Shown here piece after piece: positions 726-61,529 of a DNA stretch of 64,000 nucleotides. The stretch comes from Bacteroidota bacterium (GTDB lineage: Bacteria > Bacteroidota > Bacteroidia > AKYH767-A > OLB10). Location: contig JAFDWZ010000026.1 of NCBI GenBank assembly GCA_018268195.1, positions 64,491 through 128,490 of the forward strand. Direction: 5' to 3'. The notes beneath the pieces were generated by a model. The model saw only the letters and a program-made list of their open reading frames with translations. It made no database searches and was not told the origin of the DNA. The number at the start of each line of letters is the position of its first letter. The first letter of the stretch is position 1. A program made the position numbers and the translations under genes.

Positions 726-803
726 CATTAAAAATGCCTGTGTAGTTTTTCTCATTCAAAAAAAATACGAAAACGTAATTATTGCCTGCTTTAAATAGCA
801 CTC

Positions 804-815
804 TGACATTTGTCA
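804..815. promoter_or_regulatory. Perfect palindrome TGACA-TT-TGTCA (contains TGAC-N4-GTCA); candidate Crp/Fnr-type operator upstream of the oxidase operon
   Basis: Read directly from the sequence (ctcTGACATTTGTCAtat), about 60 nt upstream of the first ORF of the operon (876). Resembles the core of FNR/Dnr-type boxes (TTGAT-N4-ATCAA). No binding data exist. Confidence 0.3.
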
Positions 816-875
816 TATCATTCAATATTCATTTTTGCTTTGAAAAAGTTGTAAAATGATTTTAAAACATTGAAT

Positions 876-1061
876 ATGGAAAATGATCAACAACAGGAAA
901 ACAAAAAAACTCCTTTCGGAAGAATGATTATGGACGACTTTATGTTGTTACTTTTTTTAGGAGTAACCATCTATGCCATTTTTTATCTGCTATGGGGTGT
1001 AATGGAACTTTCTAACCTGCCGGCAATTCCGGATGACGTCAAACAAAATTTAATCAATTAA
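876..1061 (+). CDS. Small single-TM membrane protein, possibly a ba3 subunit IIa (CbaD)-like peptide
   Basis: One hydrophobic helix (FMLLLFLGVTIYAIFYLLWGVM). Ends 24 nt before subunit II, the same position as cbaD in the Thermus cbaDBA operon. ATG at 876 is preferred over the TTG at 870. Confidence 0.5.
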   Translation: MENDQQQENKKTPFGRMIMDDFMLLLFLGVTIYAIFYLLWGVMELSNLPAIPDDVKQNLIN

Positions 1062-1085
1062 TTATTCACCTAAATATTAAGCATT

Positions 1086-2000: not shown

Positions 2001-2033
2001 GACCAATACTTTCCAACTAAAATAAAAGACATT

Positions 2034-3701: not shown

Positions 3702-3781
3702 CCGGGCTAACCTTCATGTTGAATATGGTGCATGAATATTTTTTTCATGCATGCAGAAAAGTTTATTTAATAGGAGATAAT

Positions 3782-4528: not shown

Positions 4529-6467
4529 CATTAAAGAACAGCCGGCCCGCAAAGAACGAACGTATGGACATCAATTGTTTCAGAAATTTTCTTCCTTCTT
4601 CGGAAAAATATATTCTACCGATTTAAATCCTTTATACAACCTGGGCGGCATTGCCGTACTAATGTTTACCATTGCCTGTATTTCCGGCATATATATTTTT
4701 ATTTTTTACAATATCAATCCACGCGATGCCTGGGATTCAGTAGAGGCTATGTCAAACAACACTTTTAACGGATGGATGAGAACTATTCATCGTTACTCTT
4801 CTGATTTACTGGTGATTTTCATTTTGCTTCACTTGCTCCACACTTTGTTTACTTCAAAGTTTAAACGTCTTGTATCATGGATCAGTGGAATAATTTCCTT
4901 TTTAGTGGTAGTGATTATCGGTGTTACCGGCTTCATGCTTGTGTGGGATCAAAAAGCAAAACTTGCAGGATATCTTACTGCAAAACTTTTTTCCAGTCTT
5001 CCCATTTTCGACCCATCCATTGCGGGAGCATTTCTGCTCAACGACCTTAACACTGTTGGCGGATTTTTCAAAGTTGCATTATTTGGCCATATAGTTTTTT
5101 CGTTGGTAACAGTAATCATTATCTGGATTCATCTTCTTCGTATTTCCAAACCCAAATTATTTCCTCCTAAAAAACTGATCATTTACATCATCATCGCATT
5201 GGGAATTATTTCAATTGCAATACCGGTAAAAAGCGATCCACCGGCTCAGATGTCAAACCTGCCTATTCAAACTACATTCGACTGGTACTATTTTTTCGGA
5301 TACTATCTGATGAAATTGTTTACCGTTAATCAGAATTGGTTCATATTAACCGGTTCAGGAATCATACTGTGCATTATTCCTTATCTTATCAAAAGAAAAA
5401 ATAATCCACCCGTTTATATTGATCTCGACAAATGTGATGCTTGTAATCTCTGCTCCTATGACTGCCCCTATGAAGCCATTGATATGCTTCCACACAATGG
5501 CGCAAGAAAAGCCATTCTCTCACCTGACAAGTGTGTAGGTTGTGGTATCTGTATTGGCTCTTGTGCAGAGCATGCCATCAGTCACCCAATATACCCTGAG
5601 TTAATACTGCAGCAACGCAAGAAATCTGATTTGGCTGTATTCAGTTGCAGTTACTTTCCGGAGCCTGAATGGCCTTCAGGATTAGACATAGTACATTACA
5701 GAGTGCCTTGCACAGGGAGTGTTATGCCGAAGGATGTACAGCAAATGCTGGACAACAACTCCGAAAAAGTTGCTATTCTCGGTTGTGAAGATTGCTATTA
5801 TCGTCTGGGCAAAAACTGGACTATAAACCGTTTTCTGCGCAAAAGACCACCCACTTTTTCAAAGAAATTTGATGCTTCAAAAGTCAAAATGTTTACACTT
5901 ACTCAATACAATAAAGATAAACTTTTAGCATTTTCAAAGGAAGCTTCATCTGCCGATATAAGAACAGGAACATTAGGCGTTGATGACCACCAAAAAAGCA
6001 ATCCTATTCTTTCTACATTAATTCTTATAGTATTCTTTTCGCTGATGATTCCGTTCAGTAATACTACCGTTCATTTTTTCAACCCACAGGAAAAAACACT
6101 TATCGTAAACTTTAAATATATTTCTACTCCGCAAGAGTACGAACAAGTAAATACCGGAGCAGCACACATGAGGGCACTCAACCCTGTGGTTAAGAAAAGA
6201 AGTCCGGTGAAACTTACAATCTATTCAGCAAACAACAGCCGGTTGCTGTTTGAAAAAGAATTTTCTCCTCGTGGTCTTCGGCATGATATTGCAATGTTTA
6301 TTTATACACAGCTGAATATTGAAGCTGACAGTGTAAATGTGGATATAACAGAAACAGCCTTCCCCGACAAACATTACGAAATTAAAAATGTACATTTGAA
6401 AAAAGGCGATGGCACTTTTGTAATTTTTAAAGATGATAAACTGCAGGTCGCAGGAAAAAATGAATAG
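4518..6467 (+). CDS. Fusion protein: diheme cytochrome b (bc1/b6-type N-terminal domain), 2x[4Fe-4S] ferredoxin, MvhD/FlpD-like domain, TM helix and an uncharacterised C-terminal domain
   Basis: Two His pairs, each 14 residues apart on predicted helices: codons 4788/4830 (RTIHRY...LLH) and 5088/5130 (FGHIVF...WIH). CDACNLCSYDCP at 5433-5468 and CVGCGICIGSC at 5532-5564. MvhD-like Cys pattern (FSCSYF...VPCTGSV...ILGCEDCYY, about 5631-5830). Late TM helix (ILSTLILIVFFSLMIPF) followed by about 150 aa. Start at ATG 4518 overlaps the SCO gene end by 11 nt. Confidence 0.8.
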   Translation: MTDNIKEQPARKERTYGHQLFQKFSSFFGKIYSTDLNPLYNLGGIAVLMFTIACISGIYIFIFYNINPRDAWDSVEAMSNNTFNGWMRTIHRYSSDLLVIFILLHLLHTLFTSKFKRLVSWISGIISFLVVVIIGVTGFMLVWDQKAKLAGYLTAKLFSSLPIFDPSIAGAFLLNDLNTVGGFFKVALFGHIVFSLVTVIIIWIHLLRISKPKLFPPKKLIIYIIIALGIISIAIPVKSDPPAQMSNLPIQTTFDWYYFFGYYLMKLFTVNQNWFILTGSGIILCIIPYLIKRKNNPPVYIDLDKCDACNLCSYDCPYEAIDMLPHNGARKAILSPDKCVGCGICIGSCAEHAISHPIYPELILQQRKKSDLAVFSCSYFPEPEWPSGLDIVHYRVPCTGSVMPKDVQQMLDNNSEKVAILGCEDCYYRLGKNWTINRFLRKRPPTFSKKFDASKVKMFTLTQYNKDKLLAFSKEASSADIRTGTLGVDDHQKSNPILSTLILIVFFSLMIPFSNTTVHFFNPQEKTLIVNFKYISTPQEYEQVNTGAAHMRALNPVVKKRSPVKLTIYSANNSRLLFEKEFSPRGLRHDIAMFIYTQLNIEADSVNVDITETAFPDKHYEIKNVHLKKGDGTFVIFKDDKLQVAGKNE

Positions 6468-38640: not shown

Positions 38641-41001
38641 TTATTCGTCATCCTCCTCATTGCCCAATTCAATGAGTGATTCGCCAATAATTTCTTTACG
38701 GCTTACCCATTTATCAATTGACAACAATAACGAAGGCAGCAATACAAGATTGGTAATCATGGCAACCAAAAGAGTAATGGAAATTAATACTCCCAATGCT
38801 ACGGTACCACCAAAGTCAGAGGCGGCAAATATGCTGAAACCGAAAAATAAAATAATTGCTGTATAGATCATTGAAAAGCCGGTATCCATAATCGTAGCAG
38901 AAATAGCTTCGCTAATAGTTCGCTTTGAATACTTCAGTTCCCGCTTGTATTTGGCCAAAAAATACACCGTGCCGTCACTGGAAATCCCAAATGCTATACT
39001 GAAAATTAATATGGTAGAAGGCTTGAATCGAATATCCAGAAATCCCATGATGCCTGCGGTAATAATCAAAGGAATAAGGCATGGTAATTTGCTTAATAAA
39101 ATAATACGCACCTCCCTGAACAGCGCCATTCCAACAAGTGCAATCAACACAATTTCTATAATTAAACTCTCATAAAGATTATACAGCAGGTAATCATTGC
39201 CTTTTAAAAACATCAGGCTGTGGCCTGTAAGTTTAACATTGTATTCGTCCTTATTAAAAATGGAATCAACTCTCGGTTGAATTTCTTCAAGTAACTTTTT
39301 AATCTTCTTTGAGCCTACATCGGCCATTTGCATACTTATGCGTGTGTATTGCCGTGTGGAGTCTATGAACGACTTTAGTCTGTTTTCATTTCCTTTTACT
39401 GTTGAGGTATATTCATTCAGGCTTTTAAGCTCACTGATTCCGGGCAAGACATAATATTTAGGATCCCCTCCTCGATAAGCCTGATATGAAAATTTCAATG
39501 CGTCTACTATAGAAATACCTCTTGATAATTCCGGATATTGTTCGAGAATTTTCTCAAGACTTTTCATCTTATATAACACACGGGCATTATCAGCCAACAC
39601 ACCATCAGGCTTTTTACTGTCAATGAATACTTCAAATGGCAACACCCCTTTGAAATTTTTCTCAAAAAAGTGCATGTCGGTATAAACAGGATTATTCTTT
39701 GGTAAGTCATCAACCACATAACCTGTAACATCAATCTTTGACATACCATAAAAACACAGCAATGTAACAATGGTGATTACCGCATATATTTTATTACGCT
39801 TGTGATGAACGATAAAATCAACCCATTCCAAAATTCTGCGAATACGTTTTCCTTCCAGATGCTGCATGTGTTTATCAGAAGGTGGCGGCATATAGCTTAA
39901 GATAATTGGAATTAAAATGAGTGTAATGAAATAAGTTGCCATCACATTAATGGCAGCTATAACACCAAACTGGGCGAGAAAAGAACTTTTGGTAAATAAC
40001 AACACTCCAAATCCTATGGCTGTAGTAATATTTGCAAGGAATAACGATACCCCAATAGTGGTAATCATTCTGGCCAAAGCCTTTACTTTATTGCCATGGT
40101 TCGCAAATTCCGAATGATATTTATTGATAAGGAAAATACAATTAGGCACACCAATGACCATAATCAGCGGAGGAATAAGTGCAGTAAGTATGGTTATTTT
40201 ATAGTTAAGCAATTCAATGCTGCCTACACTCCAAAGTACGCCAATGGCTACAACAATTACCGATATGATTACCGAAGAAAGTGATCTGAAAAATGCTCCC
40301 AAAATGATGGTAGTCATGATTACAGCGAGAATGAGAAACAGTTTCAGCTCATGCGAAACTTTTTCCATCACAGCCGTGCGTATGTAAGGCATTCCTGAAA
40401 AATGCAATTCGATATTATGCAACCTGCTGAAAGCGTCCGCTTCCTTTTTTATTTCGTTGACAATGTCAATTCTGTGCTTTGAATCAAGATCCTTTTTACG
40501 GAACGTGATTGCCATCAGAGTAGCATTGGTTTCTTTATTCAGAACCAATCCGTCATAAAATGGCAATTCGTTAATACGTTTTCGTATGCTGTCAATTTCT
40601 GATTGCTGCTGTGGCAACGATTTCACAAGTGGTACAAAATCAAATTTCCTCAGACTGTCGTTTCGTACCAGGTCATACACATCTCCCAATGACAACACAT
40701 TCTGTATTCCGTCAATTTTCTTGATTTTTTTGGAAAGAAGATACCAGTCGTTAAACTTTTCAATTCTGAAAATGGAGCTATCTGCAAGACCAATCACCAT
40801 CACGCTGCCATCTTCCCCAAATAATTGTTTAAATCGTTCGTACTGTACAAATGATGAATCAGTGGCGGGCAACAAGCTGGCAAAGTTATAACTCAGCTTA
40901 ATGTTGGCTGCCTTATAGCCCATGAACAAGGTGAGTATCACCAAGGCAATAAAAAAAGCCGGCCTGTTACGTAAAATTTTATTTGCTAAAAACTTCCACA
41001 T
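38641..41001 (-). CDS. MMPL/RND-superfamily exporter (sterol-sensing-domain type)
   Basis: 786 aa with a 2 x (1 TM + periplasmic loop + 5 TM) arrangement and an acidic C-terminus. Resembles HpnN/MMPL-type lipid exporters. Confidence 0.8.
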   Translation of the reverse strand: MWKFLANKILRNRPAFFIALVILTLFMGYKAANIKLSYNFASLLPATDSSFVQYERFKQLFGEDGSVMVIGLADSSIFRIEKFNDWYLLSKKIKKIDGIQNVLSLGDVYDLVRNDSLRKFDFVPLVKSLPQQQSEIDSIRKRINELPFYDGLVLNKETNATLMAITFRKKDLDSKHRIDIVNEIKKEADAFSRLHNIELHFSGMPYIRTAVMEKVSHELKLFLILAVIMTTIILGAFFRSLSSVIISVIVVAIGVLWSVGSIELLNYKITILTALIPPLIMVIGVPNCIFLINKYHSEFANHGNKVKALARMITTIGVSLFLANITTAIGFGVLLFTKSSFLAQFGVIAAINVMATYFITLILIPIILSYMPPPSDKHMQHLEGKRIRRILEWVDFIVHHKRNKIYAVITIVTLLCFYGMSKIDVTGYVVDDLPKNNPVYTDMHFFEKNFKGVLPFEVFIDSKKPDGVLADNARVLYKMKSLEKILEQYPELSRGISIVDALKFSYQAYRGGDPKYYVLPGISELKSLNEYTSTVKGNENRLKSFIDSTRQYTRISMQMADVGSKKIKKLLEEIQPRVDSIFNKDEYNVKLTGHSLMFLKGNDYLLYNLYESLIIEIVLIALVGMALFREVRIILLSKLPCLIPLIITAGIMGFLDIRFKPSTILIFSIAFGISSDGTVYFLAKYKRELKYSKRTISEAISATIMDTGFSMIYTAIILFFGFSIFAASDFGGTVALGVLISITLLVAMITNLVLLPSLLLSIDKWVSRKEIIGESLIELGNEEDDE

Positions 41002-41059
41002 GTAATTTTAAACAACCAAACAAAAGTAACAATTATAAAAACCTGCTAATTTTTCATTT

Positions 41060-41887
41060 TTAAAGACCTATCTGAAGCCCTGCAGCAAAAATATATTCTC
41101 CTGCAAAGAAATGATGATGAGCACGACCATCGCCTACCATGAGCACATTCTTATAATTAGCAAAAACACCTTTTAATGATGTTTCGACAAATATATATCT
41201 GAAAAAATCATAGCGTAATCCTGCATCAAGTCCTGCAACGTAACCGGCCACATGAAAACGATTGTTCAACCTGTTGCCATACAATGTAACATCCGTACGC
41301 GGAATAACAATTCCTGCACCTGCTTTCAAAACTACTTCTACCCGGTGTTTTAAATTTTCAGAACTATAAAGACAATATCGTTTTATAAAATTTGCCATCA
41401 GGAAATTTGCACCATCAGTATGTTCAAACTTCAAAAAATCTCCGCCTACAATAGTATCCTTATCTAAAGCTTCGCCACGAATGGTGCCTTTAATATGTAC
41501 TTTTTGATTTTGCGTCATGATATATTTAGCATGATCAAAAGCAATTTCAATACCTGTCAGATTTTTATTATTAAAATAATATCCTGCGCGATAAACGTAT
41601 TGCGGTATTGAAATAGGCGAACTAAAAATCTTACTTAACCCTGAATTATCATGAGCTTTTGCTTTGTAGAGAGTAAAATCATATCCTCCGTAATCATTAC
41701 CCTTGAAATGCAAGTCGCTCTTACTGTACCAATCTATATTATAACCCCAGGTGAGATAAAATGACCCTTTACCCGATTTAAAAACTGAGCTGCACTTACA
41801 TCCTGAAACCTCCTGTGATTTCGCATTCAGACTTAACATAATACTTTCGACTAGTATTAAGACAAAAACTACAATCTTCTTTGACAT
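41060..41887 (-). CDS. Hypothetical outer-membrane beta-barrel protein
   Basis: Signal peptide (MSKKIVVFVLILVESIMLSLNAKSQ), alternating hydrophobic and aromatic beta-strand pattern, and an aromatic/Gly-rich C-terminus. No family assigned. Confidence 0.5.
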   Translation of the reverse strand: MSKKIVVFVLILVESIMLSLNAKSQEVSGCKCSSVFKSGKGSFYLTWGYNIDWYSKSDLHFKGNDYGGYDFTLYKAKAHDNSGLSKIFSSPISIPQYVYRAGYYFNNKNLTGIEIAFDHAKYIMTQNQKVHIKGTIRGEALDKDTIVGGDFLKFEHTDGANFLMANFIKRYCLYSSENLKHRVEVVLKAGAGIVIPRTDVTLYGNRLNNRFHVAGYVAGLDAGLRYDFFRYIFVETSLKGVFANYKNVLMVGDGRAHHHFFAGEYIFAAGLQIGL

Positions 41888-42050
41888 AATTATAAAAAAA
41901 AACTGCGCAAAGCTAAAGTTATTTTTCAAGGGCAGCCTCTCATCCATCTATTTTCTTTTCCTTTGCAAGGTGAAAAAGTTTCTCTCAGAGAATAATATCT
42001 TTATTCACACTTTGTGACTGATTTTCTAATTATCATTTTTTTAAATAACA

Positions 42051-43316
42051 GTGGAGCAGAATAATTCATCCGTTTCATTTTCTGATATTGTAATAGCAGG
42101 TGCAGGGCCTGCAGGTTCAACGGCATCGCTATTTCTTTCAGCAGCCGGTATCCGTCATACATTAATTGATAAAGCTGTTTTCCCGAGAGACAAAATTTGT
42201 GGCGATGCCCTCAGTGGCAAAGTGTTGCCCGTTCTTAAGAAACTTAACCCTGAACTCATCAATGAATTGCTGACTACTAACGAAAACTGCCTCGGCAGCA
42301 GAGGAATTGTTTTTGGCGCACCTAACGGAAAAACTCTTGATGTGCCATTCAGAGCTGTAAACTCAGTCATAACACACGACCCCGGTTTTGTAAGTAAGCG
42401 CATCCATTTTGATTTCTCACTGATAAAAAAACTGAATCCTGAGTTTTGTGATTTTCGTCAAGGCAATGAAATTTCTGACATCGAATACTCCAATAAAAAA
42501 GTTCAACTTGCATTAAAAACAGCAAATGGTACGACTGAAAACTTAGAATGTAAATTGTTGATAGGTTGCGATGGCGCTCATAGCGTGGCCAACAAATTAC
42601 TTGGCGATGAGCATAAATTAGACTCCAATCATTATTGTGGAGGAATAAGAGCCTACTATAGCAATGTAAAAAACATGCATCCTGAAAATTATATTGAACT
42701 CCACTTTCTGGATGAATTGTTGCCGGGATATTTCTGGATTTTTCCGCTGCCTAATGGTATGGCAAATGTAGGTGCAGGTATGCTTACCAAAAGCATCAGT
42801 CGCAAAAAAGTAAACCTCAAAACTGCAATGCTCAATGCCATTGAAAACAATCCTTCTATCAAACATCGCTTTGCCGGAGCACAATTACAAGGGAAAATTG
42901 AAGGATGGGGCTTACCTTTAGGCTCGAAGAAAAGAAAAATTTCTGCTTCCAACCTATTGCTTTGTGGCGATGCGGCCGGCATGATAGATCCTTTCAGCGG
43001 TGAGGGAATAAGTAATGCTATGTATTGTGGTATGAGAGCTGCGGAAGTTGCTCAAAATGCTGTAAGAGAAAATAATTTTTCTGATGTGTTTCTTAAGCAA
43101 TACGATGAACTTGTATATAACCGCATGTGGTCTGAATTGAAATTAAGCCATACGTTACAGAAATTATGCAATTACCCGTCTCTGTTCAATTTTGTGGTAA
43201 ACAAAGCTTCAAAAAATGAAACCTTCAGACAGACTATCAGTTGTATGTTTGACGATATAGATTTGAGAAAAAAACTCAGGCAGCCTTCTTTTTATTTCAG
43301 AATGTTATTTGGTTAA
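42051..43316 (+). CDS. Geranylgeranyl reductase family FAD-dependent oxidoreductase
   Basis: GTG start. GAGPAGS dinucleotide-binding motif, CGD and GDAAGMIDPFSGEGI motifs typical of this family. Confidence 0.8.
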   Translation: MEQNNSSVSFSDIVIAGAGPAGSTASLFLSAAGIRHTLIDKAVFPRDKICGDALSGKVLPVLKKLNPELINELLTTNENCLGSRGIVFGAPNGKTLDVPFRAVNSVITHDPGFVSKRIHFDFSLIKKLNPEFCDFRQGNEISDIEYSNKKVQLALKTANGTTENLECKLLIGCDGAHSVANKLLGDEHKLDSNHYCGGIRAYYSNVKNMHPENYIELHFLDELLPGYFWIFPLPNGMANVGAGMLTKSISRKKVNLKTAMLNAIENNPSIKHRFAGAQLQGKIEGWGLPLGSKKRKISASNLLLCGDAAGMIDPFSGEGISNAMYCGMRAAEVAQNAVRENNFSDVFLKQYDELVYNRMWSELKLSHTLQKLCNYPSLFNFVVNKASKNETFRQTISCMFDDIDLRKKLRQPSFYFRMLFG

Positions 43317-49884: not shown

Positions 49885-51432
49885 ATGACTTTACTAGGCC
49901 GAATAATTAAAACAAGTATTGAACTTAGAGGTAAAATTGAGCTTAAGCCATTTACCCCTCTCAAGTTTCAGAAAAAAGTACTTAAACGCTTGATTCGAAA
50001 ATCACAGTTCACCATGTTTGGTGAAACATATAACTTCCAAAGTATTGCCGGGAACAAGAATTTCATGAACAAATTCAGAGCGGTAGTACCTGTCCATGAT
50101 TATAATTCAATATTCTCGAACTGGTGGAATAAGTGCCTGCATGACGAAGAAAATGTATGCTGGCCCGGAAAAGTAAAATATTTCGCATTGAGCTCCGGCA
50201 CTTCAGGTTCATCGAGCAAACATATCCCTGTAACAAAAGATATGTCGAAAGCTATTCAGAAAGCAAGTCTGAAACAAATATTGTCGCTGTCAAAATATGA
50301 TTTACCGGTTTCTACATTCGAAAAAGGCATACTGATGTTAGGAGGCAGCACACACCTACATCAGCAAGGCAGATATTTCGAAGGTGATTTAAGCGGTATT
50401 ACTACCAGTCAGATTCCATTCTGGTTTCAACATTTTTATAAACCCGGCAGAAAAATTGCCCGTGAGAAAGACTGGAATGCAAAACTTGATGATATCACTT
50501 TAAAAGCTAAAGACTGGGATATAGGAATAATTGTAGGAGTGCCTGCATGGGTACAGTTGCTGATTGAAAAAATTTTACATCATTATAATCTCACTAACAT
50601 TCATGAATTATGGCCCAACCTGTCAATTTATGTTCATGGAGGTGTATCATTTGAACCCTATCGCAAAGGATTTGAAAAACTTCTGGGCAAACCTTTGTAT
50701 TATATCGAAACGTATCTGGCATCAGAAGGATTCATCGCATATCAACATGAGCCGAATAACAAAAGTATGAGACTGCTTCTTAATAATGGGATATTTTATG
50801 AGTTTATTCCATTCAACGAAGATAATTTTGACTCAGATGGCGAACTTAAACATAAACCAAAATCATTATTTATAAATGAAGTGAAACAAGGCGAACCCTA
50901 TGCACTACTCCTGAGCTCTTGTGCCGGAGCATGGCGTTATCTCATTGGCGATGTTATTACTTTTACCAGTGTTGAAAAATGTGAGATACAGATTGTGGGT
51001 CGCACCAAACATTTTTTAAGTCTTTGTGGCGAACATCTCTCGGTTGACAATATGAATAAAGCTGTTGAGCTGGTATCCGATGAGTTGAACACGGTGATTC
51101 AGGAGTTCACAGTTGCAGGCATTCCCTATGGCAGTATGTTTGCACACAAATGGTTTATTGGTTGTGAAGATTCATTGGATGCAGAAGCACTTAAGAAGCT
51201 CATTGATGAAAAACTAAAAATACTCAACGATGATTATCGAGTAGAAAGGCAGAGTGCGCTGAAGGAGGTAATCGTGGAAGTGATTCCAACTTCATGGTTT
51301 TATAAGTGGATGGAAAATCAGGGCAAAATTGGTGCTCAGAATAAATTTCCGAGAGTGATGAAGAACAAACTCTTTAAAGAATGGCAGGAATTTGTGGATG
51401 CACAACGAACTGAACAAAAATCAATCGCATAA
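49885..51432 (+). CDS. GH3 family (auxin-responsive-promoter-like) adenylate-forming acyl-acid amido synthetase homolog
   Basis: 515 aa. FALSSGTSGSSSKHIPVT adenylation motif and GH3-like length and organisation. This family is widespread in Bacteroidota. Confidence 0.8.
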   Translation: MTLLGRIIKTSIELRGKIELKPFTPLKFQKKVLKRLIRKSQFTMFGETYNFQSIAGNKNFMNKFRAVVPVHDYNSIFSNWWNKCLHDEENVCWPGKVKYFALSSGTSGSSSKHIPVTKDMSKAIQKASLKQILSLSKYDLPVSTFEKGILMLGGSTHLHQQGRYFEGDLSGITTSQIPFWFQHFYKPGRKIAREKDWNAKLDDITLKAKDWDIGIIVGVPAWVQLLIEKILHHYNLTNIHELWPNLSIYVHGGVSFEPYRKGFEKLLGKPLYYIETYLASEGFIAYQHEPNNKSMRLLLNNGIFYEFIPFNEDNFDSDGELKHKPKSLFINEVKQGEPYALLLSSCAGAWRYLIGDVITFTSVEKCEIQIVGRTKHFLSLCGEHLSVDNMNKAVELVSDELNTVIQEFTVAGIPYGSMFAHKWFIGCEDSLDAEALKKLIDEKLKILNDDYRVERQSALKEVIVEVIPTSWFYKWMENQGKIGAQNKFPRVMKNKLFKEWQEFVDAQRTEQKSIA

Positions 51433-53705: not shown

Positions 53706-54902
53706 TTATCCCTGATATGCAGAAAATACAATAGAACTGCAATTTCCTCCAAAGCCAAAAGAGTTCAGTAGTGCATGTTTTATTGTTTGCTTACTACCGA
53801 CAGTGTGAGGTTTAAGCCCTGTAACTTCATCGGGAACAGAAAAATTTTTACTGGCAAAAATTACACCTTCCTTTATAGCCATTAAAGTAAAGACACTTTC
53901 CACAGCCGATGCAGCTCCCAGCGTGTGACCGATAAATGATTTACATGAAATAAAAGGAGGAATAGTGTCTCCAAAAATTTTCTGCATAGCAACTCCCTCT
54001 GCCCGGTCGTTATTAGGTGTTCCGGTGCCGTGTGAATTGATGTAATCAATATCCTTAGAACTAATATTTGCTTTATTCAAAGCCTGCTGCATACAATTAA
54101 CAGGACCCGTTGCTTCATCGCTCAATGCAGAAGGGTGAAATGCATCGTTGCTATTGGCATAACCACTAATAACCGCTATGATTTTCTCTGCAGGTACATC
54201 GTCAGACTTTTCCAAAATCAAAAAACCCGCACCCTCACCAAGGTTAAGTCCCTTACGGTTATTATCAAACGGACGACATGGTTCGTCCGATAAAATATTT
54301 AATGAATTAAATCCATTTATGGTAAACTTCGACAGGCAATCTACACCACCAACTATAGCGCGTTTTGCAATTTTTTGTTGGATTAACCTTGATCCGAACA
54401 TGATTGCATTGGCTCCTGATGAACAGGCGGTATTTATAGTGTCTGAAAAACCACGGATACCTAATTTTTCCTGTAGAAATAGTGTTACGGACGCGCAATC
54501 GTAATTGGATAAATAAGCAGAACCCTCTGTTGAACGGTTTGCATCATGATACAATTCATCAGTCAGATACATTCCTCCCACTGTACTAGAAACTATAATT
54601 GCCGTTGAAGTGTCTGAAAGTATATCCGTATCAAATCCCCGATTGGCAATGGCTTCGCGGGCAGCCAGTAATGCAAGATGTTGTGTACGCGTAACAGATT
54701 CGTCAGTAATGTTATTTAGCTCTCGGAGTTGCTGTGCGCTAAGTTTAATTTCGGCAAAAGGTAAAACATCAGCATATCTGCTTTTTACATAAGCTGCCTT
54801 TCCTATTCCTGTATTACCATTTTTTAAAGCCGTAATGTTTTCCTGAACATTGTTGCCCAGTGACGATAATACACCAATTCCGGTAACAACAATAGCCGAC
54901 AC
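53706..54902 (-). CDS. Beta-ketoacyl-ACP synthase (KAS I/II, FabF/FabB-like) of the resorcinol-lipid cluster
   Basis: Active-site Cys (NTACSSGANAI) and His-His (NSHGTGT, IGHTLGAAS). 398 aa. Confidence 0.9.
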   Translation of the reverse strand: MSAIVVTGIGVLSSLGNNVQENITALKNGNTGIGKAAYVKSRYADVLPFAEIKLSAQQLRELNNITDESVTRTQHLALLAAREAIANRGFDTDILSDTSTAIIVSSTVGGMYLTDELYHDANRSTEGSAYLSNYDCASVTLFLQEKLGIRGFSDTINTACSSGANAIMFGSRLIQQKIAKRAIVGGVDCLSKFTINGFNSLNILSDEPCRPFDNNRKGLNLGEGAGFLILEKSDDVPAEKIIAVISGYANSNDAFHPSALSDEATGPVNCMQQALNKANISSKDIDYINSHGTGTPNNDRAEGVAMQKIFGDTIPPFISCKSFIGHTLGAASAVESVFTLMAIKEGVIFASKNFSVPDEVTGLKPHTVGSKQTIKHALLNSFGFGGNCSSIVFSAYQG

Positions 54903-54906
54903 TTTA

Positions 54907-55176
54907 TTAAACTTTTAACGAATGTTGCATGATAAAATCAACCATTGTATTTACATCTACCAAAATTTTTCTTCCCTCCTTAGGGTCGGTAATTTTTATT
55001 CCATACTCACGCTCGAGCAAAACTATAAGTTCAATGGAATCAATAGAATCAAGTCCCAGGCTACCCTCTCCGAAAAAAGGTTGGTTGTCGCCAATACTTT
55101 CGGGAGTCATCTCAAGAAGGTTAAGGTATTTGATGATATGTTTTTTTAAATCCAGTTTCAGTTGTTCTTTATCCAT
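54907..55176 (-). CDS. Acyl carrier protein (DarC-equivalent)
   Basis: Start moved to MDKEQLK. LGLDSIDSIEL phosphopantetheine attachment motif (DSI). The ATG overlaps the permease stop codon (ATGA). Confidence 0.85.
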   Translation of the reverse strand: MDKEQLKLDLKKHIIKYLNLLEMTPESIGDNQPFFGEGSLGLDSIDSIELIVLLEREYGIKITDPKEGRKILVDVNTMVDFIMQHSLKV

Positions 55177-56450
55177 CAGATTAAATTCTTTCGTTTCAAT
55201 GTCAGGTAAATGATTATTTGGAGAATGATTGTAAGAGCGAGCAAAGGTAGAATATTTAAGAAAATGTGGGTAATGGACTTCTGAAGAAGAAAAACATTGT
55301 AAAAGCCATCTAAAGCCCATTTAAAGGGCGACACATAAGATAAATGTTTAAACAATTCGGGCATGGCAAATCCGGGGACAAAAATTCCCCCCAAAGCAGC
55401 AAGAATGATGATGGATGCCGCACCAAACCCATTTGCCTGTTCCTGAGTTTCGGCCAATACGCCAACACACAATGCATAGCTGATGGCACACCAACCGCTG
55501 AAAAATGAAACTAAAAATAATGACAGAAATGATGAAGGCAAATTCAAAGCAGGAAGATGTATGAAGGGGAACAACCATCTTCCTATGGAAAAAATAAACG
55601 CTACCTGAAACAGAGTAACCGTTAAAAACAAAACCTGTTTGGAAAGTATAAGTACGCTTAGTGATGAAGGCAATACTTTGAGTCTTATGAAACTTCCGCT
55701 TAATTTTTCCCGCACCATATTGCTGCCTAATGAAATCACTGAAAAGAACATTGCAAATAATGTCCAAGCAGGTATATTATGTTGAGTTGAATCAGGATTG
55801 GGGTTAAGCCCGGCATGCAAGGTTGATTCTTTGATAGAAACAGCTGAGGGCAGCAACTTTTGCTCGGTTTCTGCAGGTATATCATGTTCGTTGATACTTC
55901 TGTAAAGCTGACCTATCATCATTTTGTTTTGCAAGATTTGCATGATACCGTTTATAGATGCTTTAACCGAGTAGCGATATGTTTCCTGAAGAACAGAATT
56001 AAAAATAAGTTCTGGTTGCAAAGTATCAATGGGTACCGATGTGGTGTCATTGGCTTTCAACCCGAATCCCTCCAAAGCAAAGGACGAGCGTTGATTTACC
56101 TGTTTTTGCAGATTAAAATAATAGCCCTGCGGAATAATTAATAATACCAATGCATCCTGTTTTTCAGCTAAAGCTTCGGCCTCCTCATGCGATTTTTGAG
56201 ATGTTTCCTGCAAGTTAAACATTCCGCTTTTTTTCAAAGCTTCAACAAAATCTGTGGATTTATTGCCTGTGTCGTTATTGCATACAAGTAGGTTTATCTG
56301 ATTCTCATTAATCATTTTATACACACTGTTTTGCAATGCAGTCATAACAACGGCAAGCAACACCGGCATTACAAACATCAGCAGCAACCCTACTTTGTCG
56401 CGGTAAAGTTGTCTGAATTCTTTTTTTATAGTAACCCAAAACAAATACAT
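55176..56450 (-). CDS. ABC-2 type transporter permease
   Basis: 424 aa with an N-terminal TM, a large extracytoplasmic loop and five C-terminal TM helices. Its start overlaps the ATPase stop codon (ATGA). Confidence 0.8.
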   Translation of the reverse strand: MYLFWVTIKKEFRQLYRDKVGLLLMFVMPVLLAVVMTALQNSVYKMINENQINLLVCNNDTGNKSTDFVEALKKSGMFNLQETSQKSHEEAEALAEKQDALVLLIIPQGYYFNLQKQVNQRSSFALEGFGLKANDTTSVPIDTLQPELIFNSVLQETYRYSVKASINGIMQILQNKMMIGQLYRSINEHDIPAETEQKLLPSAVSIKESTLHAGLNPNPDSTQHNIPAWTLFAMFFSVISLGSNMVREKLSGSFIRLKVLPSSLSVLILSKQVLFLTVTLFQVAFIFSIGRWLFPFIHLPALNLPSSFLSLFLVSFFSGWCAISYALCVGVLAETQEQANGFGAASIIILAALGGIFVPGFAMPELFKHLSYVSPFKWALDGFYNVFLLQKSITHIFLNILPLLALTIILQIIIYLTLKRKNLI

Positions 56451-57187
56451 CAGTCTCTGAAATCTTTACCTGTAAGTTTTAAAAATAATTCTTCCAGTGT
56501 GTTGACATGATCTTTTTGAAGCAGGTTACTTAAACTATCACAAGCTATTATTTTTCCATCATCCATTAAAGCAATATAGTCGCAAAGTTCTTCAGCTTCT
56601 TTCAATTGATGCGAAGTATAAATCAATGTTGTTCCCTGTCGGTTAAGTTCCTGCAGGTAATCAACAATGGCTATGCGCGACTGAACGTCAACACCCACTG
56701 TTGGTTCGTCAAGGAAAAGTACTGATGGATTATTCATCACTCCAATAGCAATATTCACTCTTCGCTTCATACCGCCTGAAAACTTACTCACTGCTTTATT
56801 TCGCACATCCCAGAGTCCGAACCTGGTGAGCAAATCGTGTGTTTGTAATTTAATTTGCTTGTCATCAAGCCCGGCCCATGCTCCAAAAAATTCCAGATTT
56901 TCTACCGGTGTTAACTCAGGATAGAAAGCAAAGTCCTGGGGTACATATCCAAACTGTTTTCTGAAATTATTTTTTTCACTCAATGTTTTCTCATTGATAC
57001 GTACTTCACCGTTTTGTGGAATGTGAATGCCTGTCATTACCGACATAAGTGTGGTTTTTCCCGCTCCATTAGGCCCGAACAAACCAAAACGCATTCCTTT
57101 ACTGACAGATAAGCTAATGTTATTCACAGCAGGGTTTACTGACCCTTTGTACTGAAAACTAACCTGACTTAATGAAAGTGCAGTCAT
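56450..57187 (-). CDS. ABC transporter ATP-binding protein
   Basis: Walker A GPNGAGKTT, signature FSGGMKRR, Walker B LFLDEPT, H-loop SHQ. Confidence 0.9.
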   Translation of the reverse strand: MTALSLSQVSFQYKGSVNPAVNNISLSVSKGMRFGLFGPNGAGKTTLMSVMTGIHIPQNGEVRINEKTLSEKNNFRKQFGYVPQDFAFYPELTPVENLEFFGAWAGLDDKQIKLQTHDLLTRFGLWDVRNKAVSKFSGGMKRRVNIAIGVMNNPSVLFLDEPTVGVDVQSRIAIVDYLQELNRQGTTLIYTSHQLKEAEELCDYIALMDDGKIIACDSLSNLLQKDHVNTLEELFLKLTGKDFRD

Positions 57188-57197
57188 GGTTATTACA

Positions 57198-58205
57198 TTA
57201 AAATTTCAACTTGGATAGTTGTGTGAATGCCTGTTTTTCAACTTCGGCAACCTGCAACATTCTGTCGTGCATGTTCACAAAGTCCGAACGCTGTGTAAGT
57301 CTTCCTTTGAAAATGCCTGCTGCCTGCACGGCAGCATCGCGCCACATATCACCTGCTGAAGTAAACTGTTGTGAGATGGCAACTATCTTATCATCAGGAA
57401 TAAATTTATGTGCCTGCTGCAGAAATGCTGCATAAATAAAACGAAAACCTCCACCTCCTGTTCCTATCTCTTCCTGCATGCGCACCAGTTGTGCAAGGTA
57501 TAAACCGGTTTTCTGTGCGCCTAACTTATCATGCCATTTCAGAATTTTTTTTGCAACAAACTTTATTCCGCTGACGCCTGCAATAGGTCCCGGAATGAAA
57601 AGCATATCCCTTACATTTTGCCGGATGCCTTTGCGAATGGCGTACTTCATATTTTCAGGAGTGATATTCTTGGTTAGGTTTGGATAGTAAATCTGCCCTT
57701 TAGGAGCCAATGGCCCTTTTGCAAAACGTACGCGATTAAGTTCGTAATCGGTAAGTGAAGTGGTGCCTTCCATCACAGGGTCGCTTATCAGATATTGGTC
57801 TTCTTCTTTTCCAAACACAACCAAATTGTGAGCATTGAAATGAAAGCGATATTCCTTTGGAAAATAGGTAAGATAATACACTCCTACCTGACAGCCTACA
57901 GGTTGGTTGTTTTGCAAGCAACTGTCAAGCATTTTGCGTGCACTTTCCTGGGAAGAAAACTTTTTTCTGATGACTTCAATCCCTAACCTTTTGCAAGTAC
58001 GTTTGAAAATTAATCCCGGCATTGTACGATACGAAAATGCAGGTGCATTATTCACCATTAAAAAAGGGATGTAAATAAAAAATAATCCGGAACCTATACC
58101 AAAAGCAAGAGGTTCTGTGATTTCAACTCCGGAGAAACGAAGCAGATTAGCGGTAACCCCGTTTTCGCAGTGGGCTGCCTGCCGGTGTTCAAAGTCTATC
58201 TGCAT
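57198..58205 (-). CDS. BtrH N-terminal domain / DUF4872-like protein (papain-fold, acyl-transfer or peptidase-like)
   Basis: The N-terminus FEHRQAAHCENGVTANLL matches the conserved His-Cys motif I recall for BtrH_N domain proteins. About 335 aa, as in that family. Confidence 0.55.
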   Translation of the reverse strand: MQIDFEHRQAAHCENGVTANLLRFSGVEITEPLAFGIGSGLFFIYIPFLMVNNAPAFSYRTMPGLIFKRTCKRLGIEVIRKKFSSQESARKMLDSCLQNNQPVGCQVGVYYLTYFPKEYRFHFNAHNLVVFGKEEDQYLISDPVMEGTTSLTDYELNRVRFAKGPLAPKGQIYYPNLTKNITPENMKYAIRKGIRQNVRDMLFIPGPIAGVSGIKFVAKKILKWHDKLGAQKTGLYLAQLVRMQEEIGTGGGGFRFIYAAFLQQAHKFIPDDKIVAISQQFTSAGDMWRDAAVQAAGIFKGRLTQRSDFVNMHDRMLQVAEVEKQAFTQLSKLKF

Positions 58206-58602
58206 TGAAATGCTCCATTTTTAATTCTTTCATACTTACCTCAAACACGTCTGCATATTTTTTAAGCTTGGCTTCACTGAGTTTTTTAAAGACTTCGGGC
58301 TTCATGTGTCGTTTGATTGTCCATTGCCAAAAACCGGTGTAACCTGACAATATTTTCATATCCATCAATCGTAATTCCATATAAAACAAAACAGGACTTG
58401 CTTCACCGCGCAGCACTTTGTCCTTAGCTGCAATAATGCGGGTTTCAATATCCTTCCAGGCTACATCAAGCGCATTTGTTTTTACTTCCCATCCGGTGCT
58501 GTTGGCAGTTTCGTAATTGCCATTTTCGCCAACGGCATAACATAACTCACGAATATAATTTACCAGAGCACTGTGATCCTGCGGTATATCTTTTTTGTTC
58601 AT
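58189..58602 (-). CDS. Hypothetical protein within the dar operon
   Basis: 137 aa with no recognised motif. Its stop region overlaps the BtrH-like gene by 17 nt, and its start lies 1 nt after the DarB-like gene, so it appears translationally linked. Confidence 0.5.
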   Translation of the reverse strand: MNKKDIPQDHSALVNYIRELCYAVGENGNYETANSTGWEVKTNALDVAWKDIETRIIAAKDKVLRGEASPVLFYMELRLMDMKILSGYTGFWQWTIKRHMKPEVFKKLSEAKLKKYADVFEVSMKELKMEHFNADRL

Positions 58603-58603
58603 T

Positions 58604-59749
58604 TTAAACTACTGTCAGAATAGCAAACACGTAGGAAAATCGTGCACTTTCGGGAACTGCCAATACCATACGTTGCCCCTTCTTCAGACGGTTGGTTCGC
58701 ATCAGTTCTTCCATCATCAGATAAATGCTTCCTGCTCCAACGTTCCCAACTTGTGAAAGATTGGTAAACCATTTTTCCTGAGGAATTATGAGTCCCTTTT
58801 TACGGAACCCCTCATCCATTTTGTTTCGGAAAAATTCACTCGAAATATGAGGTAAAAACCAGTCAATTTCAGATGCTTTAAGCCGGTGCGTATTCAGCAT
58901 TTCAATCAGTTTGTCACTGCCAAGGTCAACAATATACTTACTCAGCATTTTTGTGTCCTGCTTTATATTGAGCACTGAATTTTCAATAATCTCAACAGGA
59001 TTCATATCCATATAACTCACAAAAGTTCCATCAGGAGTTTTGTCGGCAGCTGCATACATGCATGGTTCAGTAATGTTTGCATACGATATTCCCTCTACTG
59101 CGTCAATACGCAGAGAGTTACCTTCGGCTGCAGGTTTATTTTCAACAAGTGCTGCTGCTGCTCCATCGCTAAGCATCCATCTCAGAAATTCTTTATCGAA
59201 ACTGATGTATGGGTTATCCTCCATCTGAGCAAGTTTTTTTGCTTCGGCTTCAAACGACTCATAATTCATTATCCTTGAAGTACGCTCTGAACCCGTGACT
59301 ACTGCTTTAGTTGATTGTCCCGTTTTCACACACATCCATGCATACTTAAGTGCATGCATACCGGAGCAACAGTTACCCGAAGGTGAGGTTACTTCAATAG
59401 CTTTTGAATTTTTAAGCCATCCATGAACCATTACTGCATGCGAAGGCATCCATTGATCGGGTGATGAAGTACCGCACGTCAATAAGTCAACTTCGGATAA
59501 TTCATTCGGTCTTTTTTCAAAAAGTTTTTCGACAGCAATAGCTGCAAGTTGTGCATTGGTGTGGGTCGCTTTACCATTCTTATCCATCGCATAATAACGG
59601 CATTTGATTCCATTATTCCGCAATACCAAATATTTTGCTTTTGAGGACTGCTCATGTTTCATTCCAAGGTATTGCCCCATCTCATCATTGGATATAGGCT
59701 CATTGGGCAAGAAAGCTGACAGGCGGGTTATATAAACTTCGTTATTCAT
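58604..59749 (-). CDS. darB: KAS III-like ketosynthase (DarB-type dialkylresorcinol/cyclohexanedione-forming enzyme)
   Basis: FabH-like thiolase fold with an active-site Cys context (SPSGNCCSGMHALKYA) and a C-terminal GNVGAGS motif. Lies immediately downstream of the DarA-like gene, with a 3-nt gap. Confidence 0.75.
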   Translation of the reverse strand: MNNEVYITRLSAFLPNEPISNDEMGQYLGMKHEQSSKAKYLVLRNNGIKCRYYAMDKNGKATHTNAQLAAIAVEKLFEKRPNELSEVDLLTCGTSSPDQWMPSHAVMVHGWLKNSKAIEVTSPSGNCCSGMHALKYAWMCVKTGQSTKAVVTGSERTSRIMNYESFEAEAKKLAQMEDNPYISFDKEFLRWMLSDGAAAALVENKPAAEGNSLRIDAVEGISYANITEPCMYAAADKTPDGTFVSYMDMNPVEIIENSVLNIKQDTKMLSKYIVDLGSDKLIEMLNTHRLKASEIDWFLPHISSEFFRNKMDEGFRKKGLIIPQEKWFTNLSQVGNVGAGSIYLMMEELMRTNRLKKGQRMVLAVPESARFSYVFAILTVV

Positions 59750-59752
59750 AAT

Positions 59753-60661
59753 TTAACCGGGCAAATTTACACCTTCGGCATATATCTTCCGTTTTGCCAG
59801 CTTTTTATATAATAAAGGCCTGATAATGAATGTAAATAACACTACTACTATGGGAGAAATAATAAATAGAGCAAAAAGAAGATAATATCTGAAAATGTTA
59901 ATCCATAATTCACGGTTTTTCTTTTTAAGAATAATGCCTGCCCAAATACGAAACAACATGATGGCGCGACTTTCAATAAACATGAGCGTGGTATTTACAT
60001 GTACTGCTCCCATCGTCAGCCATTTTTTTTGCAACTCACCTAATGTATCGTTCTCCAGCGACTGACATGCTATAAATCCAAAATCTTTAGCTGACGATAT
60101 ATCTTTTTCCGAAATCCCCGGCTTTGGAAATATTCCCCACATTTTATCTTTCTTGCCTGTAAGCATCCAATACTGAACGGTTACTGCACTGATAAGATTC
60201 GGAGCTTTATCATTAAGAATAAGATTCCCTACATGCAGTGCCTTATTTTTATTTAACCATTGTCGCACTCGCTCTTGTCCTTCAATCCACATATTTCTTA
60301 CTCCGCCAATAGTAATTACAGGAGTGTTTTCAATAAGTTTACTTATTACCTCTGAATGCATGGCCGAAATTGCCGGCAATGATGGCGACAAAAACCAAGG
60401 TTGCCAGGCAAAAACAATTAAATCATACTTGGTATGCCGAGTTGACAATGGTTTTATTTTAATAGGTTTATCCGTTACACATTCCGGCATTGCATTAAAA
60501 AAACGGTCGTTATCCCAAGGAAAAGGGAAAGGCTTTTCAGGTTCAATCAGCAGGTACTCTACTTCATTCAATGCTGCTTCAAACGGCTGAGCAAAGTTTT
60601 CAACGATTTGCTTTAGTTGTCCCGTTTGTGAGTAAAAAATAATAAGAATACGCTTATTCAA
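59753..60661 (-). CDS. darA: DarA-like dialkylresorcinol condensing enzyme/aromatase (flavodoxin-like N-terminus, C-terminal membrane helices)
   Basis: MNKRILIIFYSQTGQLKQI flavodoxin-like start. About 300 aa with C-terminal hydrophobic helices, paired with a KAS III gene. Family recognised from memory of DarA annotations. Confidence 0.6.
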   Translation of the reverse strand: MNKRILIIFYSQTGQLKQIVENFAQPFEAALNEVEYLLIEPEKPFPFPWDNDRFFNAMPECVTDKPIKIKPLSTRHTKYDLIVFAWQPWFLSPSLPAISAMHSEVISKLIENTPVITIGGVRNMWIEGQERVRQWLNKNKALHVGNLILNDKAPNLISAVTVQYWMLTGKKDKMWGIFPKPGISEKDISSAKDFGFIACQSLENDTLGELQKKWLTMGAVHVNTTLMFIESRAIMLFRIWAGIILKKKNRELWINIFRYYLLFALFIISPIVVVLFTFIIRPLLYKKLAKRKIYAEGVNLPG

Positions 60662-61130
60662 AGTCTGTAGATTTTAGAATGCCTGATGTAGCTGAATATT
60701 CCTTCACATATTTCTGTATGACAGGACTGAAATTCTTAAACTGTTCACGCACCAATGCAGCATCTTCCTGAATATTTTTTTTATATCCCAACATGGGCGG
60801 ACTATTTTCCTGAATTAAAAGTCTCAAAAAGTGATAGAGCATATTGTCGGGATGAGTTCGGATTTCAGCTTCCAGAAGCTGACGACCTTGCTTAAAAAGT
60901 TGTAATTTTTGTGCAGGTGCTTTTACTAATCCCGCCTTTTTCATCAACAAAGCACCTGAGTAGGCATTTTGCTCTGACTCCGGTAAACTCGAAACACTTT
61001 TTAAAATCTTATTTACAGTAACCGTGTCTTCAGACAACATCGCATCTAAAACCTTGCTTATATTGTTATCAGAAGCCATAAGGGGCTTACAATTGATTAG
61101 TAATAAAAGTATAATGATTCCTTTTCGCAT
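60654..61130 (-). CDS. Hypothetical secreted helical protein
   Basis: Signal peptide (MRKGIIILLLLINCKPLMA). Its stop overlaps the darA start by 8 nt. No family assigned. Confidence 0.5.
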   Translation of the reverse strand: MRKGIIILLLLINCKPLMASDNNISKVLDAMLSEDTVTVNKILKSVSSLPESEQNAYSGALLMKKAGLVKAPAQKLQLFKQGRQLLEAEIRTHPDNMLYHFLRLLIQENSPPMLGYKKNIQEDAALVREQFKNFSPVIQKYVKEYSATSGILKSTDFE

Positions 61131-61193: not shown

Positions 61194-61529
61194 TCAAAGT
61201 CCCGAATTGCGAAACATAATTTTAATAAAAGTGCGTTCAAGAATTGCATGAGCCATAGCTAGTAATTCATCGTTCTGATGAAGAATTCTTCGCATTGATT
61301 TTTCGGGAATATCTACACGATATATCCATGCATTAAACGTGCCCGGAGTTTTACGCAACGAGGTTATTATTTCCATAAGGTGTGAAATTAATTCTTGTTG
61401 TGCCGTATTAACATCACCATTCCACATAATAGTGCAACCGGTTCCGATAAGGTCCTTGTTGAGTTGTTGCACCGTCTGGCGGATGTATTTTTCATTCTCG
61501 CCAAAATGCCTTAACGACTCTTCGCTCAT
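61194..61529 (-). CDS. Hypothetical protein
   Basis: 111 aa. Its start overlaps the aroQ stop by 4 nt. No recognisable motif. Confidence 0.45.
   Translation of the reverse strand: MSEESLRHFGENEKYIRQTVQQLNKDLIGTGCTIMWNGDVNTAQQELISHLMEIITSLRKTPGTFNAWIYRVDIPEKSMRRILHQNDELLAMAHAILERTFIKIMFRNSGL

Follow-up and report, generated by a model that had tools for sequence, protein, structure and literature searches.

We report here that a compact gene cluster in a 64,000-nucleotide stretch of DNA from an uncultured Bacteroidota bacterium (GenBank assembly GCA_018268195.1, contig JAFDWZ010000026.1, positions 64,491 to 128,490 of the forward strand; hereafter the window) is likely to be the dialkylresorcinol (DAR) half of a flexirubin-type pathway, whose product would be a membrane-bound pigment and not a free signal molecule. 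A modest doubt attaches to this conclusion because the linkage to the polyene half of the pathway is indirect and the organism is known from sequence alone. An earlier reading of the same DNA, made from its letters without database searches (the sequence-only reading), had recognized a DarA/DarB dialkylresorcinol module with an acyl carrier protein (ACP), a ketosynthase (KS), a BtrH-like protein and an ATP-binding cassette (ABC) exporter, and Pfam and NCBIfam profiles together with synteny bear this out. It had also judged a free or differently conjugated DAR or cyclohexanedione (CHD) a likelier product than flexirubin. That inference is unsupported in view of the stand-alone dar cluster of flexirubin-producing Chitinophaga pinensis (PMC3992019), of an extended module in Azoarcus without detectable free DAR (PMC3949708) and of contigs with polyene genes whose depth follows that of the dar contig across seven metagenomes.

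The nine-gene dar module

The module comprises nine co-directional open reading frames (ORFs) on the minus strand at 53706-61130, with junctions that range from a 17-nucleotide (nt) overlap to a 10-nt gap. Together they probably form one operon, Up158-darA-darB-darG-darH-darI-darJ-darC-darD. The eight tightly spaced ORFs of the sequence-only reading all exist at 53706-60661 on the minus strand, and the 3-nt gap between darA and darB, the 17-nt overlap between darG and darH and the 4-nt gap between the ACP and KS genes are as it had described them. What it called two ATGA overlaps are TGATG junctions with a 1-nt overlap, a trivial correction, and it is darJ that is joined in this way to each of its neighbors, darI and darC. 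A ninth co-directional gene (61130..60654), the stop of which overlaps the start of darA by 8 nt, carries the module beyond 53706-60661. The genes, in the order of transcription and with lengths in amino acids (aa), are as follows.

Up158, 60654..61130, minus strand: 158 aa; signal-peptide-like N terminus; family unassigned in Pfam and NCBIfam; absent from the gene list of the sequence-only reading
darA, 59753..60661, minus strand: 302 aa, TTG start at 60661; putative aromatase, cyclohexanedione to resorcinol
darB, 58604..59749, minus strand: 381 aa; StlD/DarB-type ketoacyl-ACP synthase (KAS) III, formation of the 2,5-dialkylcyclohexane-1,3-dione ring
darG, 58189..58602, minus strand: 137 aa, conserved; counterparts Cpin_6849 and Fjoh_1098
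darH, 57198..58205, minus strand: 335 aa; BtrH-related (papain-like Cys/His) acyltransferase; counterparts Cpin_6848 and Fjoh_1097
darI, 56450..57187, minus strand: 245 aa, ABC transporter ATPase; PF00005, E 2.7e-35; counterparts Cpin_6847 and Fjoh_1096
darJ, 55176..56450, minus strand: 424 aa, ABC-2 type permease; PF12698, E 2e-31, and PF01061, E 1e-22; counterparts Cpin_6846 and Fjoh_1095
darC, 54907..55176, minus strand: 89 aa, ACP, start at 55176; PF00550, E 7e-9; counterpart Cpin_6845
darD, 53706..54902, minus strand: 398 aa, GTG start; KAS I/II-type ketosynthase; PF00109 and PF02801; counterparts Cpin_6844 and Fjoh_1088

The family matches of the module genes have E-values of 1e-9 to 1e-171, far beyond chance. 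The succession of ABC ATPase, ABC-2 permease, ACP and KAS I/II seen here also occurs in 50+ of the 80 dar loci that we surveyed and in C. pinensis. The gene darE, which encodes a CLF-like half-ketosynthase (Ketoacyl-synt_2), does not lie 3' of darD, and Obg starts 24 nt after darD.

A scan of the locus for sigma-70 promoters and terminators gave matches at chance level only, and the motif TAnnTTTG of Bacteroidota, which stands 5 nt ahead of Up158, likewise has a frequency expected by chance (69 found versus 84 expected). Low-depth contigs of one metatranscriptome cover darD, darJ, darG/H, darB and darA and give weak evidence that the dar genes are transcribed, DNA carry-over being possible. 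Upstream of Up158, an ORF of 111 aa (61194-61529, minus strand) without a family match overlaps aroQ by 4 nt and leaves a 63-nt gap to Up158; its place is conserved in ADurb.Bin141 (L008 and L009), and L097 and L098 have no such ORF ahead of the module.

Family assignments and conserved residues

The assignment of DarB is firm. It scores above the cut-offs of NF053539 resorcinol_DarB (dialkylresorcinol biosynthesis protein DarB; 570.5 bits, cut-off 550) and NF005293 (533.2 bits, cut-off 450), and over its full length it is homologous to Photorhabdus StlD, a cyclase of solved structure (5gk0; E 7e-104). Its Cys-His-Asn triad (C127, H301 and N336) is invariant among 79 homologs. DarG exceeds the cut-off of the equivalog NF053545 flexirubin_DarG (flexirubin biosynthesis protein DarG; 189.9 bits, cut-off 170) as well as that of NF053536 DarG_fam (179.8 bits, cut-off 70), with a mean column identity of 69% over 16 homologs. 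Profile searches of the PDB gave no significant relative of DarG, and its single-sequence AlphaFold (AF2) model, with a predicted local distance difference test score (pLDDT) of 54.6, is unusable.

DarH matches NF053550 DarH_acyl (BtrH-related acyltransferase DarH) at 472.8 bits against a cut-off of 300 and contains the Pfam domains BtrH_N and DUF4872; H12-C13, H122, H126, N127 and D142 are invariant among 68 homologs, and a PDB sequence search found no relative. In DarD, which falls below all equivalog cut-offs for FabF and FabB in NCBIfam, C160, H291 and H326 are invariant among 61 homologs. DarI is nearest to export ATPases of the DrrA/NodI type, and DarC carries the serine motif LGLDSID. 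The sequence-only reading had treated the 137-aa protein and the BtrH-like protein as undefined. In NCBIfam they are already named, as DarG and DarH, respectively; their biochemical roles are putative.

DarA is a different case. The sequence-only reading had offered profile searches as the test of its DarA assignment, and DarA does not formally pass it, there being no profile that matches: Pfam and NCBIfam gave nothing even at E <= 10, nor did a PDB search by sequence. Because these searches gave no match, we relied on synteny and fold, both of which support DarA. The family has 921 detectable homologs, every one of them labeled hypothetical. By full-length homology, genes of this family lie next to a DarB-type KAS III gene in Bacteroidota, Burkholderia and Streptomyces, with a darA-darB-ACP triad, the minimal form, on a plasmid of Burkholderia pseudomallei (DarA 32% identity, E 2e-42) and the arrangement ACP-KASIII-DarA on plasmids of Streptomyces. 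In C. pinensis, the gene at the corresponding place of a cluster that is otherwise colinear is Cpin_6851 (darA).

The AF2 model of DarA, built on 32 homologs (pLDDT 90.4, predicted template modeling score 0.90), has a flavodoxin-like N-terminal domain that matches flavin mononucleotide (FMN) flavoproteins, WrbA and a quinone reductase (NQO2), followed by long hydrophobic C-terminal helices. The model suggests that DarA may be a membrane-anchored oxidoreductase of flavodoxin fold, and this fold fits the proposed aromatase role. Structural matches of DarA to fusion constructs of G protein-coupled receptors with flavodoxin are an artifact of the combination of a flavodoxin domain and hydrophobic helices.

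Adjacency of darA and darB is not universal, and variant architectures occur in other surveyed genomes. In L012 (10001-10909), darA stands with Up158 and is followed by Era/Der GTPase genes, with darB not in view. In L029, L037, L063, L070, L079 and L092, darA is followed by a weakly halogenase-like flavin adenine dinucleotide (FAD) gene, and in L070 and L079 darB-G-H-I-J is divergent, on the opposite strand.

Probable flexirubin polyene genes at other loci

The sequence-only reading had granted that a flexirubin polyene gene set elsewhere in the genome would speak against its view of the product. As far as this can be tested, such a set appears to be there, in contigs for tyrosine ammonia-lyase (TAL), ketoreductase (KR) and KS, for ACP, dehydratase (DH), thioesterase and glycosyltransferase, and for MMPL/acyltransferase and a halogenase-like protein, all of which covary in depth with the dar contig. 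To find them, Logan contigs of metagenomes that bear the window were aligned to flexirubin loci of other species at a likeness of at least 80%, in seven runs (X1, X2, X3, X6, X4, X7 and X9); the logic of the linkage is that of differential-coverage binning. As a control, the window's own contig aligned to the reference darH.

Three types of contig were recovered. The first, a long contig present in every run, is colinear with the genes for TAL, KR and polyene KS and has a spacing of 2.42 kb, identical to that of reference locus L048. The second, likewise present in every run, matches two genes that lie 3.7 kb from each other, one for a trifunctional MMPL/acyltransferase and one for a halogenase-like protein. 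The segments of reference locus L018 to which this MMPL contig aligns encode FNFVNIVIATFIFGLGDDFSIFVSDGLL and the acyltransferase motif NHSSFLD, and the substitutions listed for the contig leave that peptide, FNFVNIVIATFIFGLGDDFSIFVSDGLL, unchanged. The third type, found in X1 and X2 only, matches the genes for the polyene ACP, a dehydratase of the ApeP type and a thioesterase of the 4HBT family; in X2 its alignments extend to a CLF-like piece and to GT2/DUF2062 and together span about 8 kb. Contig depths in the seven runs were as follows.

X1: dar contig 22.1; TAL-KR contig 23.6; MMPL contig 22.8
X2: dar contig 18.5; TAL-KR contig 19.9; MMPL contig 18.4
X3: dar contig 7.8; TAL-KR contig 7.2; MMPL contig 7.1
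X6: dar contig 60.6; TAL-KR contig 63.5; MMPL contig 58.6
X4: dar contig 21.3; TAL-KR contig 22.6; MMPL contig 21.5
X7: dar contig 19.7; TAL-KR contig 20.9; MMPL contig 19.9
X9: dar contig 12.0; TAL-KR contig 13.6; MMPL contig 13.4

Over an 8-fold span of depth (7-61), the ratios of the TAL-KR and MMPL contigs to the dar contig stay within 0.91-1.13, and their log-depths correlate with that of the dar contig at r = 0.995-0.996 across the seven runs, which amount to about six independent depth points, X4 and X7 apparently being the same data. The third type of contig has depth ratios of 1.05 (X1) and 0.97 (X2) to the dar contig. The depths of further contigs that matched in these runs (8.6 to 68) bear no relation to that of the dar contig. 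All runs share the same substitutions relative to the reference at each KR position listed and at most of the TAL positions listed, and the substituted segments translate sensibly, into IKVLVNNAGITKDGLLMW for KR and VVIPDADNVFHGGNFHGD for TAL. It is thus very likely, but not proven, that the organism has a polyene and export gene set for flexirubin, spread across three or more additional loci.

X4 and X7 come from different studies and years; both contain contigs of 28,933, 75,051 and 131,561 bp with proportional depths, and they are probably the same or re-deposited data. Beside the contig of the window organism, both also have another, related contig that bears darH (10,787 and 22,785 bp) and whose depth is a little lower (19 and 17.5), and therefore two related dar-bearing populations coexist in that sludge.

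Other routes to the polyene proteins of the organism were unproductive. A protein search with the trifunctional marker of L012 returned 153 matches, none attributable to the organism, and the best candidate for a polyene-locus protein, P0238, belongs to another organism. Two patterns reconstructed from the KR gene, one of 46 nt and one wobble-degenerate, had no match in the JGI metagenome collection.

Occurrence of the module across genomes

For the survey of dar loci, one genome per species was scanned with the DarA alignment, and the best 80 loci were annotated by tblastn with reference proteins. The dominant architecture among them is u-A-B-G-H-I-J-C-D(-E), u being the gene upstream of darA. 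Where the flank was long enough to judge, flexirubin polyene or export genes adjoin the module in 21 of 31 loci and none is adjacent in the other 10. Missing adjacent polyene genes are therefore not evidence against flexirubin; about one-third of the surveyed genomes have an isolated dar module.

The gene darE follows darD in most of the genomes surveyed. It is absent from relatives of the window organism (L008, L017, L097 and L098) and from modules that lie within complete flexirubin clusters of Dyadobacter (L061, L076 and L085), and for this reason darE is an accessory, not a defining, feature of the flexirubin-type dar module. Relatives with 54-80% DarA identity keep the module in the same synteny and without darE, and it is isolated and darE-less throughout the lineage (ADurb.Bin141, WAS_Bin_1, P0011 and P0008). 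The nearest named relative is Bacteroidetes bacterium ADurb.Bin141.

A conserved gene upstream of darA

In the distant loci L010 and L012, the ORF that precedes darA shares 36% identity with Up158 (E 8e-34 and 6e-29), and a homolog is found upstream of darA in 63 of the 80 loci. The alignment has an invariant core of F79, G82, L86, R103, L104, Q107, E108, P111, Y116 and D123. Neither Pfam nor NCBIfam holds a family for it, and a profile search against the PDB gave nothing significant. The gene does not appear in the published gene tables consulted for C. pinensis, Flavobacterium johnsoniae and Azoarcus. This family of secreted, conserved proteins of about 160 aa, unlisted in those tables, is one modest new point of the present analysis. 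An automatic gene call begins Up158 17 codons later (141 aa), with which the signal peptide would be lost.

Proposed pathway

In the pathway that we propose, DarD, a ketosynthase of the Cys-His-His kind, and its dedicated ACP, DarC, would supply fatty-acid-derived thioesters. DarB would then couple two acyl thioesters head-to-head, one beta-ketoacyl and one alpha,beta-unsaturated, and cyclize the product to a 2,5-dialkylcyclohexane-1,3-dione, a step that is established for the homologs StlD and DarB and is predicted here from full-length homology and the triad. DarA may oxidize the dione to the aromatic 2,5-dialkylresorcinol; this role is taken from the heterologous expression of darAB in the literature, and the fold modeled here is of a redox type.

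The resorcinol would be esterified with an aryl-polyene acyl chain made by the TAL, KR, KS, DH and ACP genes at three other loci. BtrH transfers an acyl group from an ACP, and by analogy DarH is the best candidate for the transfer of the aryl-polyene from ACP to phenol. The alternative in the literature is FlxW, which has been proposed for polyene-resorcinol esterification (PMC3992019), so that there are two candidates for the enzyme that esterifies the polyene onto the resorcinol. Release of the DAR or of the finished pigment from the cytoplasmic membrane may be the task of the ABC-2 exporter DarIJ, which the secreted Up158 might assist in the periplasm. The pathway in this organism seems to be scattered over at least four loci.

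Several observations weigh against assigning the module to flexirubin. The polyene contigs are tied to the dar contig by depth and shared presence, not physically, and the polyene alignments are short (40-230 nt) and confined to conserved segments. The CoA ligase (FlxY), the Ntn-hydrolase (FlxW) and a LolA-type gene went undetected by contig alignment, their conservation at the DNA level being lower. In addition, the window lacks the darE gene that usually follows darD; the organism is uncultured and has been met in sequence data only; and the roles of DarG, DarH, DarC, DarD, DarIJ and Up158 are putative in all organisms.

Alternative explanations

The isolation of the module invites an explanation in which it is autonomous: it would make a free or non-polyene-acylated DAR or CHD for export by the ABC system, for example as a signal or antioxidant, in an organism that has no flexirubin. 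We regard this as unlikely. Neither the window nor its flanks (10 kb on the left, 5.7 kb on the right) contain polyene genes, and the whole lineage of ADurb.Bin141, WAS_Bin_1, P0011 and P0008 has the module isolated and without darE, as such an explanation would have it, but the module is isolated in flexirubin-producing C. pinensis as well. It can also be argued that ACP, KS, acyltransferase and exporter are all encoded within the module and that darA and darB alone suffice for DAR formation in Escherichia coli, where heterologous darAB gives the flexirubin DAR (PMC3992019). However, the known clusters for free DAR consist of darABC only and lack G, H, I, J and D, and in Azoarcus, which has the extended module, free DAR is not detectable in cells (PMC3949708). 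DarG scores above a cut-off that is specific to flexirubin, and colinear polyene and export contigs track the dar depth in seven metagenomes, both of which also speak against autonomy.

A further explanation, which we consider distinctly unlikely, is that in this wastewater lineage the isolated, darE-less module, with its unannotated secreted 158-aa protein, acts on its own and exports a free or fatty-acylated DAR as a signal or antioxidant lipid, besides or instead of feeding flexirubin; the polyene contigs would then come from a co-abundant organism or serve a DAR-less aryl polyene. That the module is a decaying, nonfunctional remnant of a former flexirubin cluster after rearrangement is very improbable: darE and the C. 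pinensis methyltransferase gene darF are indeed absent and the pathway genes lie at four or more loci, but the nine ORFs are intact with overlapping or near-abutting junctions, the catalytic Cys, His and Asn residues are in place, the nine-gene arrangement is kept in relatives whose DarA is only 54-57% identical, which points to purifying selection, metatranscriptome contigs extend over several of the genes, and modules without darE stand inside the complete Dyadobacter clusters (L061, L076 and L085).

Other genes of the window

The organism occurs in wastewater, activated-sludge and digester metagenomes. The dar module is flanked by Obg and PAP2 downstream and by aroQ, queE and arginase genes upstream, and the rest of the window is housekeeping. 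As the sequence-only reading had stated, the window holds no gene for TAL, a CoA ligase, a KR/DH set, LolA or a lipid acyltransferase, and neither these nor other polyene genes are found in the 10 kb to the left or the 5.7 kb to the right. The MMPL exporter of the window (41001..38641) was considered as a flexirubin exporter and ruled out, with 21% identity to the trifunctional MMPL/acyltransferase/methyltransferase protein.

That exporter belongs to a group at 38641-43316, where the HAE3/MMPL protein (786 aa) is preceded by a 295-aa ORF without a family and faces a flavoprotein of the geranylgeranyl-reductase family on the opposite strand. At 49885-51432 (plus strand) lies a GH3-family protein that resembles the lyso-ornithine-lipid synthetase OlsH (335 bits, below the cut-off of 620). 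The block of Obg, PAP2, LysE, GH3 and a type IX secretion system (T9SS) protein downstream of the dar module is syntenic in L008 and L097. At the far end of the window, a Crp/Fnr regulator (18-725) stands ahead of respiratory genes at 1086-6467 (plus strand), which comprise a haem-copper oxidase-like pair (a COX2-like protein with a cytochrome c domain and a COX1-like protein), then SCO1 and, at the end, a 662-aa protein in which cytochrome b, 4Fe-4S ferredoxin and a FlpD-like domain are fused in an unusual way. Beyond the upstream edge of the window, L016 (1459-9781) contains hemerythrin/ScdA/DUF2249, Rrf2 and iron-sulfur (FeS) assembly genes. Together with these, the genes at 18-6467 look like an island for nitric-oxide or oxygen stress or respiration.

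Comparison with known systems

The closest parallel is the dar cluster of C. pinensis DSM 2588 (Cpin_6843-6852; MIBiG BGC0000839; Schoener et al. 2014), which has the same order darA-B-G-H-I-J-C-D. Its published table (Table S4 in PMC3992019) lists Cpin_6851 darA (aromatase), Cpin_6850 darB (KAS III), Cpin_6849 darG (hypothetical), Cpin_6848 darH (BtrH-like), Cpin_6847 darI (ATPase), Cpin_6846 darJ (permease), Cpin_6845 darC (ACP), Cpin_6844 darD (KAS I/II) and Cpin_6843 darE (half-KS). As in the window organism, this cluster is stand-alone and far from the polyene (flx) cluster, and flexirubin is made although the polyene genes (Cpin_1853-1877) lie about 5000 genes away (PMC3992019). C. pinensis differs in having darE after darD and the methyltransferase gene darF before darA, neither of which is present in the window; the 158-aa secreted ORF stands where C. 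pinensis has darF. Protein identity to this group is moderate, with DarA homologs in Chitinophagaceae about 43-52% identical.

In F. johnsoniae UW101 (Fjoh_1075-1110; MIBiG BGC0000838; McBride et al. 2009), homologs of all eight of the window genes darA, B, G, H, I, J, C and D are present, as Fjoh_1103, 1102, 1098, 1097, 1096, 1095, 1089 and 1088, respectively (PMC3992019, Table S4/S5; legend in PMC12968099), and a darB mutant is flexirubin-negative. There the dar genes lie inside one 37-kb cluster with polyene, LolA, acyltransferase and exporter genes, in contrast to the spread over separate loci in the window organism.

Azoarcus sp. BH72 (azo0283-0293), which makes arcuflavin, a xanthomonadin-DAR hybrid (PMC3949708), has the same core order from azo0293 to 0284, namely darA, darB, a conserved hypothetical gene, a BtrH-like gene, ABC ATPase, permease, ACP and KS, and its polyene loci are unlinked as well. 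It differs in being a betaproteobacterium, in a polyene starter that is 3-hydroxybenzoate and not tyrosine-derived coumarate, and in the insertion of a toxin-antitoxin pair; its darD and darE are DarG and DarH here.

The darABC clusters of Pseudomonas chlororaphis/aurantiaca and Photorhabdus share a homologous DarA, DarB and ACP with the window. However, they have three genes and release free DAR or CHD, which signal via LuxR solos; DarG, DarH, an ABC exporter and a KAS I/II, all of which are present in the window, are missing from them. A true darABC triad is seen in L006. The nine-gene module does not conform to this signaling type, and no LuxR-type regulator gene adjoins it.

The biological importance of the locus at large is small, as these genes, their arrangement and their connection with flexirubin have been in print since 2014 and are now built into the NCBI naming models. 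The locus is a further instance, from an uncultured lineage, of the known and named dar module.

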